Source: Vibrio vulnificus CMCP6 (GTDB lineage: Bacteria; Pseudomonadota; Gammaproteobacteria; Enterobacterales; Vibrionaceae). From it: 32,000 nucleotides of DNA. The stretch is taken from NCBI RefSeq assembly GCF_000039765.1, contig NC_004459.3, positions 510,001 through 542,000 of the forward strand. Reading direction: 5' to 3'. Below the pieces are notes generated by a model. It did no database searches. It was not told where the DNA came from and saw nothing but the letters and a program-made list of their open reading frames with translations. Of the stretch, positions 10,015 to 12,133 are shown in pieces. The number at the start of each line of letters is the position of its first letter. The stretch's first letter is position 1. The translations under genes and the position numbers were made by a program.

Positions 10015-10533
10015 TTATCCTCTTCGTTTAACTTTTTTACCTTTCAATTTACGTTCGCGAAAAGGCATGGCTAACGATGCAAATTCCTTCATCGCTCGGC
10101 GATAAACGTCTCGCTTAAATGAAACCACCTGACGCACAGGATACCAATAGCTAACCCAACGCCAACCATCAAATTCAGGAGAGCTACCTTTTTGCATATT
10201 GATCTTGGATTCATCGCACTCAAGACGCAAAAGGAACCATTTCTGCTTTTGGCCGATACAAACAGGCTTAGAGTCCCAACGAACCAGTCTCTTTGGTAGC
10301 TTATATCTTAACCAATGACGACTGCTCGCAATGATCTTAACGTCTTTGTGCGTTAGACCGACTTCTTCATACAACTCTCGAAACATTGCTTGTTCCGGAG
10401 TCTCACCATCATCAATCCCCCCTTGAGGAAATTGCCAAGAGTGTTGCCCGTATCGCTTAGCCCAGAAGACCTGACCATGGTTATTACAAATCACTATACC
10501 AACATTTAGCCGGTAACCATCGCCATCTATCAC
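10015..10533 (-). CDS. rppH: RNA pyrophosphohydrolase RppH (NudH)
   Basis: (M)[16 protein letters not shown]... with Nudix box [23 protein letters not shown], collinear with E. coli RppH. GTG start with a GAGG Shine-Dalgarno 7 nt upstream. Confidence 0.95.
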
Positions 10534-10702
10534 TGGCTAACCTCTAAGATAAGTTTTTTATTACAGTGATTTTTCCACATATCCCCAACAGTAGCAAACT
10601 TACTGATGTGATATAGCTAAGATTTATCGTGTTTCAGACCCAATTGAATAACTTTTCAGCACAAAAACAGTTATCAACACAAGTTTGAGACACAGACCAC
10701 AT

Positions 10703-10737
10703 TTATTCACCTTTTCTGTGAATAACTTTGTGAAGAA
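10703..10737. promoter_or_regulatory. Cluster of three DnaA boxes in a DARS-core-like arrangement
   Basis: TTATTCACC (10703-10711, + strand, 8/9 to TTATNCACA), then 5 nt. TGTGAATAA (10717-10725, = TTATTCACA on the minus strand, 9/9), then 3 nt. TGTGAAGAA (10729-10737, = TTCTTCACA on the minus strand, 8/9). One box therefore faces two tandem boxes. Confidence 0.6.
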
Positions 10738-10920
10738 TAACTTCTTTTCGTCAATGATAGTTTCATCATCACTCACTCATAAACATTACCTCTTTCCAAA
10801 AATAAAAAATAGCCTTTAATATTCAATCAATTAAAAATACAAACAAGATCTTTCAGCAAACTAACTCTTGATGATCTTTTGACCACAAACAGATCGGTCA
10901 AAGATCATACAACGCCTATT

Positions 10921-10929
10921 TTATCCACA
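10921..10929 (+). promoter_or_regulatory. Perfect consensus DnaA box
   Basis: TTATCCACA, an exact 9/9 match to the high-affinity DnaA box. Confidence 0.6.
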
Positions 10930-11040
10930 CTCAAAGTTTTAAAAATGACTAACATCACCAAAAATCAAGCAAAATATCGCTTACCATATACTGTTTATTG
11001 ATCCATGATTTTACTTTTCACCTTTGAGAACGCCCCTTTC

Positions 11041-11049
11041 TGTGGATAA
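11041..11049 (-). promoter_or_regulatory. Perfect consensus DnaA box (minus orientation)
   Basis: TGTGGATAA = TTATCCACA on the minus strand, 103 nt upstream of the mutH ATG. Confidence 0.6.
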
Positions 11050-11151
11050 CTTATTAATAGATCAAAACACCAGCAATGATGATCCTTGAGCGTATCGCTT
11101 CGATCCGATTCTTTGTTACCATATCGCTTTCCCATTATTACGGCCTTGGTT

Positions 11152-11835
11152 ATGAAACCCATTCCACAAACAGAAGCAGAACTGCTCCAACGAGCGAATC
11201 AAATTGCAGGTTGTAGCTTCGCCGAGTTGGCAGAAGAAGCGAATATGGACGTTCCTCTGGATCTCAAACGCGACAAAGGTTGGGTGGGGCAACTTCTTGA
11301 GTGGCACTTAGGCGCGCCTGCTGGCAGTAAACCACAGCAGGATTTTTCCGAACTGGGTATTGAGTTAAAAAGTATTCCCGTCAGTTATAGCGGCAAACCG
11401 CTTGAAACGACGTTTGTCTGCGTAGCACCACTGACGGGTGTGCATGGATTAACGTGGGAAACCAGTCATGTGCGCAATAAACTCTCCCGCGTGTTATGGA
11501 TTCCGGTTGAAGGGGAGCGAGAAATCCCACTGGCAGAGCGTCATGTCGGTACACCACTGCTTTGGTCTCCCAATGACGAGGAAGAAATATTACTCAAAAA
11601 TGACTGGGAAGAATTGATGGAGATGATCGTGTTTGGTCAATTTGATCAAATTTCGGCCCGACATGGCGTGGCTCTTCATCTCAGACCAAAAGCCGCGAAT
11701 AGCAAAGCACTCACCGAAGCGTATAACATCAACGGAAAACCGATTAAAACACTGCCACGTGGATTTTATTTACGAACTCAGTTTACCGCTCAGATTTTGC
11801 AAAATGCCTTCAACTCATTGCTCAATGAGGAGTGA
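11152..11835 (+). CDS. mutH: DNA mismatch repair endonuclease MutH
   Basis: From ATG 11152: [27 protein letters not shown]...[38 protein letters not shown]...[10 protein letters not shown]...[10 protein letters not shown]..., collinear with E. coli MutH (229 aa). The track start at 11086 adds 22 non-homologous residues. Confidence 0.93.
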
Positions 11836-12133
11836 GTTGCAGTTCAATATCATAGTAAGAAGCCAATCGGTCGCTACCAACTTCTTCGTAGACGTTATGT
11901 AAACGAAGATACGCTTTCTCCACCCCCAATCTCAGTAATTCTTCTTTCACTAAATCCAAAGACGAGAAATGCATCAATTCCTCCCCTTGTTTAATAGGCT
12001 CAAGATGATGTTTGTACTCTATGGCCAACAGATACTCATTGGCATCAGAGCAACCTATTACGAACATTTTAGGCGGCACATAATGATCATGATGTTTACT
12101 GTGTAGCCAAAGATCCAATTGATGTTTCTGCAT
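11822..12133 (-). CDS. Conserved hypothetical protein, 103 aa, function unknown
   Basis: Clean ORF with a strong Shine-Dalgarno (GAGGTAGG) before ATG 12133 and non-random composition. I recognise no motif. The 3' end overlaps mutH by 14 nt. Confidence 0.55.

Follow-up and report, generated by a model that had tools for sequence, protein, structure and literature searches.

The genes rppH and mutH point away from each other in Vibrio vulnificus CMCP6, and a preliminary description of this locus recognized a DARS2-like arrangement of DnaA boxes between them. In E. coli, DARS2 chiefly accounts for the regeneration of ATP-DnaA that precedes every replication round. The question raised by the locus is whether the Vibrio spacer is the orthologue of DARS2, and what its architecture would imply for a genus with two chromosomes. 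The window analyzed here is the whole stretch of 32,000 nucleotides. On the left flank of the spacer, rppH (10015-10533, minus strand) encodes a NUDIX RNA pyrophosphohydrolase of 172 aa with a GTG start at 10533, a Pfam NUDIX match and 76% identity to E. coli RppH. On the right flank, mutH (11152-11835, plus strand) starts with ATG at 11152 and encodes a 227-aa product with a Pfam MutH match and 64% identity to E. coli MutH. Both starts and the 618-bp length of the spacer are as first described. The order ptsP-rppH, spacer, mutH and a tas-like aldo-keto reductase gene is common to the window and E. coli, and the rppH-mutH synteny expected of DARS2 was seen in the E. coli annotation, in the window through its ORFs and Pfam matches, and in 78 Vibrio loci. 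The MutH of the window has an exact match at 2.40 Mb of the 3.29-Mb replicon CP035731.1, and its best GTDB representative is V. floridensis (MutH 90% and RppH 99% identical). Downstream, a 103-aa ORF (11822-12133, minus strand) runs toward mutH and shares 14 bp with its 3' end; it is a gene in public annotations and has no Pfam match, and E. coli carries ygdQ and ygdR in its place.

The spacer has a GC content of 0.33 compared with 0.46 for the window overall, and a search for a conserved ORF in it found none, in agreement with the earlier view of an AT-rich spacer that lacks a credible ORF. A protein-coding spacer was rejected, as the largest ORFs are 40-55 aa long and lie in regions of ~0.5 conservation. 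An Rfam scan of 10300-11400 (E ≤ 1) found no family, so the conservation described below is not explained by a known RNA. A counterpart of E. coli YgdT is absent from every Vibrio locus examined. In E. coli, ygdT (48 aa, 5331-5477 in L001, the numbering used here for the MG1655 locus) lies wholly inside the right half of DARS2, from box V to the distal box, and the lack of a homologue in any Vibrio spacer makes it doubtful that ygdT is a real gene.

Seven DnaA boxes occupy the spacer, with the positions and sequences that had been listed for them. Three of the boxes form a 35-bp core at 10703-10737, TTATTCACC-TTTTC-TGTGAATAA-CTT-TGTGAAGAA. Box I (TTATTCACC, 10703-10711, plus strand) is the same as E. 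coli box I and is nearly invariant in Vibrio. It stands head-to-head with box II (TGTGAATAA, 10717-10725, minus strand, where it reads TTATTCACA, a 9/9 match) across the 5-nt spacer TTTTC (10712-10716), which is also the same in E. coli. After a gap of 3 nt, CTT, box III follows (TGTGAAGAA, 10729-10737, minus strand, reading TTCTTCACA, 8/9), again the same as its E. coli namesake. The plan of the DARS2 core is the same: box I faces boxes II and III, and the gaps are 5 and 3 nt. To the left of the core are a perfect box with TTTTCCACA (10571-10579, plus strand), which lies inside a conserved block at 10564-10586, and an upstream box, TTATCAACA (10671-10679, plus strand, 8/9), whose genus consensus is TTATCCACA. 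To the right are box V, TTATCCACA (10921-10929, plus strand, 9/9), and a distal inverted TTATCCACA (11041-11049, minus strand); the left flank of this distal box, CTTTCTGTGGATAAC, is similar to box II plus its spacer.

Such a density of boxes exceeds chance. Four perfect TT[A/T]TNCACA boxes lie in 618 bp, against 0.09 in shuffled sequences and, outside the spacer, 0.10 per 618 bp of the window, and the seven boxes with no more than one mismatch compare with 2.05 in shuffles (P = 0.0045). The 35-bp core pattern occurs once in 32 kb and in 0 of 100 shuffles. Box II and its left flank recur at the distal box as the direct repeat D1 (10710-10728 with 11034-11052; CCTTTTCTGTGAATAACTT versus CCCTTTCTGTGGATAACTT, 89%), and the E. 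coli distal box resembles box II and its flank in the same way. The repeat suggests either that the TTTC flank may matter or that the distal box may derive from an ancient duplication.

In E. coli, the elements other than the core were located with consensus sequences and oligonucleotides taken from the literature. The E. coli core, TTATTCACC-TTTTC-TGTGGATAG-AGT-TGTGAAGAA, was found at L001 5136-5170 in the MG1655 gap between rppH (ygdP/nudH) and mutH, where the preliminary description had placed DARS2, and it is exactly the segment that published DARS2 box I-III deletion primers remove (PMC4585315). The cores of the window and of E. coli DARS2 align at 31 of 35 bases with equal spacings; box I, TTTTC and box III are identical, and box II is perfect in the window but has one mismatch in E. 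coli. The E. coli DARS1 core (TTATCCACT-ATTCC-TGTGGATAA-CCA-TGTGTATTA) has the same three-box plan, with box I opposed to II and III across gaps of 5 and 3 nt, but matches the window core at only 25 of 35 bases. DARS1 also differs in its genomic context, between bioD and uvrB upstream of uvrB, in needing neither IHF nor Fis, and in having no FBS/box V module, whereas the window has the rppH-mutH context and such a module. By its core, then, the window element belongs with DARS2 rather than with DARS1.

A different reading of the same boxes is that they resemble E. coli datA, the DDAH site, and restrain initiation by titrating DnaA or by stimulating hydrolysis of DnaA-bound ATP. datA is likewise a non-coding cluster of DnaA boxes with an IHF site that alters the nucleotide state of DnaA, and the high-affinity box cluster and the IHF-type site of the window are both features that datA has too (PMC5742627). 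However, datA promotes ATP hydrolysis, uses ATP-DnaA, has another box arrangement and is not syntenic with the window locus, whose sequence and synteny are orthologous to DARS2. In addition, the head-to-head pair of boxes I and II is typical of DARS elements, and a Fis site is not used by datA. We therefore consider a sink or inactivator of this kind extremely unlikely.

The DARS2 reading extends well beyond the core. For six of the seven window boxes, E. coli has a box at the corresponding place. In the window as in E. coli, the start of the upstream box precedes box I by 32 bp; the E. coli box (TTATAAACA, L001 5104-5112) falls outside the 455-bp DARS2 fragment (primer D2TET-1). Also left of this published fragment is a further segment, CAATTGAATAACTTTT (10642-10657), which most Vibrio species retain; it has a match in E. 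coli, CAATTGAATAACTCAC (L001 5076-5091), and none in V. cholerae. On the mutH side, the homologue of FBS2-3, a region essential in E. coli, lies at 10896-10916, with FBS2 as GGTCAAAGATCATAC at 10896-10910; it would be predicted by homology to bind Fis. The E. coli FBS2 is GGCGAAAGATCAACC at L001 5322-5336, as defined by published oligonucleotides (PMC8682772), and from FBS2 through box V the two sequences match without gaps at 28 of 38 positions. In DARS2, box V next to the Fis sites is the feedback element, and in the window this place is taken by the perfect TTATCCACA at 10921-10929, which starts 25 bp after the start of FBS2, as does the E. coli box V (L001 5347-5355). The distal inverted TTATCCACA of E. 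coli is at L001 5466-5474, 119 bp from box V as compared with 120 bp in the window. A search of the window spacer with the strict Fis consensus GNNYANNNNNTRNNC came back empty, a point against the DARS2 reading. The same pattern picks out a single E. coli site, probably FBS1, and misses FBS2-3, so this consensus is too strict to be useful.

Box I and box V are 218 bp apart in the window and 211 bp apart in E. coli, and since shifts of the IBS or FBS by 5 bp impair activity in E. coli, the additional 7 bp count against the DARS2 reading. The window also departs from E. coli DARS2 (455 bp, rppH/ygdT-mutH, 64 min) in its spacer, which is 618 bp long and lacks a ygdT ORF, compared with 702 bp in E. 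coli, in an extra conserved box beside rppH, and in its number of GATC sites, eight compared with two. The flanking genes are alike, and a candidate site of the IHF type in the window would lie, like the IHF sites of E. coli, about midway between the core and the Fis site.

The preliminary description had found no convincing IHF consensus in the AT-rich DNA to the right of the core. Here a candidate did emerge, ATTCAATCAATTA at 10821-10833 (plus strand), with one mismatch to WATCAANNNNTTR and at a position conserved across the genus. Its match is as good as those of E. coli IBS1 and IBS2, which have one mismatch each. The two E. coli sites, at L001 5229-5241 and 5245-5257, are 3 bp apart as published, whereas the window has a single recognizable 13-mer. 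From the center of the candidate it is 90 bp back to box III and 76 bp on to the FBS2 center; for E. coli IBS2 these distances are 81 and 78 bp. Within the window alone, a match to the IHF consensus is not significant (P = 0.42). In 69% of the Vibrio loci, however, a site with no more than one mismatch is centered 65-100 bp after box III, compared with 1-20% for control intervals, and 17 loci have a perfect match at this distance. The genus profile, AAWCAWnnnnTTA, has its C and A nearly fixed, with conserved specified positions and free n positions. The orientation of the site differs between Vibrio clades, and V. floridensis, the nearest relative, lacks an IHF site at the exact spot of 10821-10833. 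It is the comparison across species, and not the match in the window, that supports 10821-10833 as a candidate IHF site.

How faithfully the architecture is kept was assessed across the genus. Using MutH as the anchor, we collected 80 loci from different Vibrio species, and 78 of these loci have both genes. Their spacers are 601-670 bp long (78 loci), and the median identity to the window is only 54%. Against this background, the core arrangement was recovered in all 78 other Vibrio species, with the strict pattern in 73 and one further mismatch in 5. The TTTTC between boxes I and II is present in all but two of the 78 loci, which have ATTTC instead. Box II varies among species mostly at its N position (TGTG[A/T/C/G]ATAA), and variation in the core as a whole is concentrated at the box N positions and in the 3-nt spacer, the pattern predicted if selection acts on DnaA binding. 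From rppH to box I the distance is 165-170 bp across Vibrio, and from box I to box V it is 216-220 bp in almost all. The distal box is perfect in each of the 75 loci in which it was scored, 118-120 bp after box V. Overall, distances are constant within 1-2 bp across the genus.

The frequency of the major allele across 79 species gives a second measure. It is 0.96 for the core, 0.90 for FBS2-3 and 0.98 for box V, compared with ~0.5 for the intervening DNA and with 0.45 and 0.68 for fourfold-degenerate sites of mutH and rppH, respectively. All 79 species keep the G, Y, A and C of the Fis consensus in FBS2. These values indicate that the DNA between the sites drifts at a neutral rate, and that the core, FBS2-3 and box V are under purifying selection.

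The genus-wide data also bear on the idea that the spacer is a conserved orthologue with a diverged activity. The Vibrio element could, like DARS1, be constitutive and need neither IHF nor Fis, or its chief role could lie in nucleoid or SeqA organization; the timing known from E. coli would then not apply. The AT-rich interval between the core and the FBS is poorly conserved, the IHF site moves or flips between clades, a GATC cluster is specific to Vibrio, and the 7 bp added between the core and box V might be seen in the same light. On the other hand, purifying selection on FBS2 and box V is as strong as on the core, the IHF-type sites stay in the narrow zone of 65-100 bp, and the distances are fixed to 1-2 bp throughout the genus. 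On balance, we regard such a divergence as very unlikely.

Two conserved blocks of the Vibrio spacer lie away from the core. The first, GTGATTTTTCCACATATCCCCAA at 10564-10586 (major-allele frequency 0.98, 79 species), contains the box at 10571-10579 and is absent from E. coli, whose spacer has no box at the matching position. Read by eye on the rppH strand, the block has the form TTGGGG-17 nt-TGTAAT, although the promoter scan made no call there. By this reading, the box may lie in the spacer of an rppH promoter, in which case DnaA might repress rppH-ptsP from it. The second block, at 10985-11005 between box V and the distal box, has the genus consensus CCCTGTTTATTcATcCA (frequency 0.87) and is partly common to E. 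coli (GGCTGTAAATGGAAACA). Comparison by eye with the DnaA, IHF, Fis and LexA consensus sequences found none that fits; a LexA box was rejected here, as the block reads CTGT-N8-CCAT and does not have ACAG. Nearer to mutH, TGTTACCAT at 11113-11121, ~30 bp upstream of the ATG, has the genus consensus TGtTAcAAT and resembles an extended -10 element, conserved in the genus, that would serve mutH.

These promoter-proximal features raise the alternative that DnaA acts at this locus as a transcription factor, and that the boxes are operators for the divergent rppH-ptsP and mutH promoters with no role in recharging DnaA. The box at 10571-10579, in a block conserved at 98% and possibly between the -35 and -10 of an rppH promoter, and the distal box at 11041-11049, ~70 bp upstream of the conserved TGtTAcAAT-like -10 element of mutH, are both placed as operators might be. 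The core, however, is far from either gene, ~170 bp from rppH and ~415 bp from mutH. A scan for promoters and terminators returned one weak promoter-like match (10879-10908) and nothing at the boxes; the lack of a strong promoter there can be held against operators, the scan itself being neutral on the idea. Moreover, operators leave unexplained why the DARS2-specific core, the exact spacer, FBS2 and box V are found from E. coli to Vibrio. An operator role could coexist with a DARS2 function instead of replacing it, and as the sole explanation of the boxes we judge it most improbable. The preservation of the DARS2-specific arrangement since the split from E. coli is explained neither by operators, nor by a datA-like site, nor by a diverged activity.

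The GATC sites are a further feature of the Vibrio spacers. In the window, all eight sites are on the mutH side, in 259 bp (10847-11105), compared with an expectation of ~1.3. Vibrio species have a median of 5 sites toward mutH and of 0 toward rppH, and E. coli has 2 in its entire spacer. At aligned columns, GATC is present in 75 of 79 species at 10903, which is inside FBS2, in 54/79 at 11081, in 51/79 at 10892 and in 40/79 at 11060. The cluster might constitute a genus-specific control of the Vibrio DARS2, in which Dam hemimethylation and SeqA silence the reactivation of DnaA just after passage of the fork, but we consider this layer unlikely. If it did exist, the regeneration of ATP-DnaA on chromosome 1 would be tied to the progress of replication, unlike in E. 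coli, and the firing of chromosome 2 that is triggered by crtS would be indirectly tied to it as well.

Taken together, the match of the core, the homologous FBS2, box V and distal box, and the arrangement kept throughout the genus bear out the DARS2-like reading of the preliminary description and make it highly probable that the rppH-mutH spacer is the orthologue of E. coli DARS2. As an orthologue, it very probably reactivates ADP-DnaA. In E. coli, and in E. coli only, release of ADP from ADP-DnaA that depends on IHF, Fis and negative supercoiling has been shown. Homology, synteny, spacing and purifying selection are read directly from the Vibrio sequences; each binding event and the nucleotide exchange in the following scheme are carried over from E. 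coli. ADP-DnaA would bind the core boxes I, II and III (10703-10737), and the molecules on the opposed boxes I and II would meet head-to-head through their AAA+ domains. IHF, bound ~90 bp away at the candidate site 10821-10833, would bend the AT-rich DNA, and the bend would bring the core complex up to Fis on the FBS2-3 homologue (10896-10916). ADP would then be released, and apo-DnaA would leave and bind ATP, restoring initiation-competent ATP-DnaA for oriC of chromosome 1. At box V (10921-10929), ATP-DnaA that has accumulated probably displaces Fis, which would provide negative feedback.

The literature already holds part of this picture. Kasho et al. 2014 (PMC4245941 Fig. S10A) set the DARS2 core, IBS1-2 and FBS2-3 of E. 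coli alongside those of V. cholerae N16961, Shewanella and Aeromonas in an alignment, and Miyoshi et al. 2021 gave an alignment of FBS2-3 and box V that includes the V. cholerae homologue (PMC8682772 Fig. 8). The V. cholerae DARS2 alignments in these two papers come from the Katayama laboratory (PMC4245941; PMC8682772). According to a 2017 review, related proteobacteria keep both the sequences and the spacings (PMC5742627), and the published work as a whole describes the DARS2 core, IBS, FBS and their spacing as conserved in gamma-proteobacteria including V. cholerae. Since the V. cholerae homologue appears in published alignments, the element counts as already known, and the preliminary description implied more novelty than the element has. 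Our searches on DARS or DARS2 together with Vibrio agree with its remark that an experimentally characterized Vibrio DARS is not known: they found no paper testing the element in any Vibrio, and the Vibrio papers that they did find mention DARS only as an analogy for crtS. The gap is thus experimental and not conceptual, and what the present analysis adds is a genus-wide quantification and exact coordinates.

The analogy with crtS was drawn explicitly by its authors, who likened that site to DARS2 (PMC6139311; PMC3937223). Like DARS2, V. cholerae crtS, which is on chromosome 1, is a non-coding chromosomal site that activates an initiator with the help of a global regulator, in its case by remodeling RctB. 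It differs in acting on RctB with Lrp for chromosome 2, in its unrelated sequence and in its location outside the window. The exact coordinates given here can now be used for mutagenesis of the DARS2 orthologue. A DARS2 mutant would offer a clean way to shift the timing of both chromosomes, because the firing of chromosome 2 depends on chromosome 1 being replicated. From the core through the IHF zone and the Fis site to box V and the distal box, the architecture is kept with near base-pair spacing in 78 other Vibrio species, so that chromosome 1 initiation can reasonably be expected to be under the same control.
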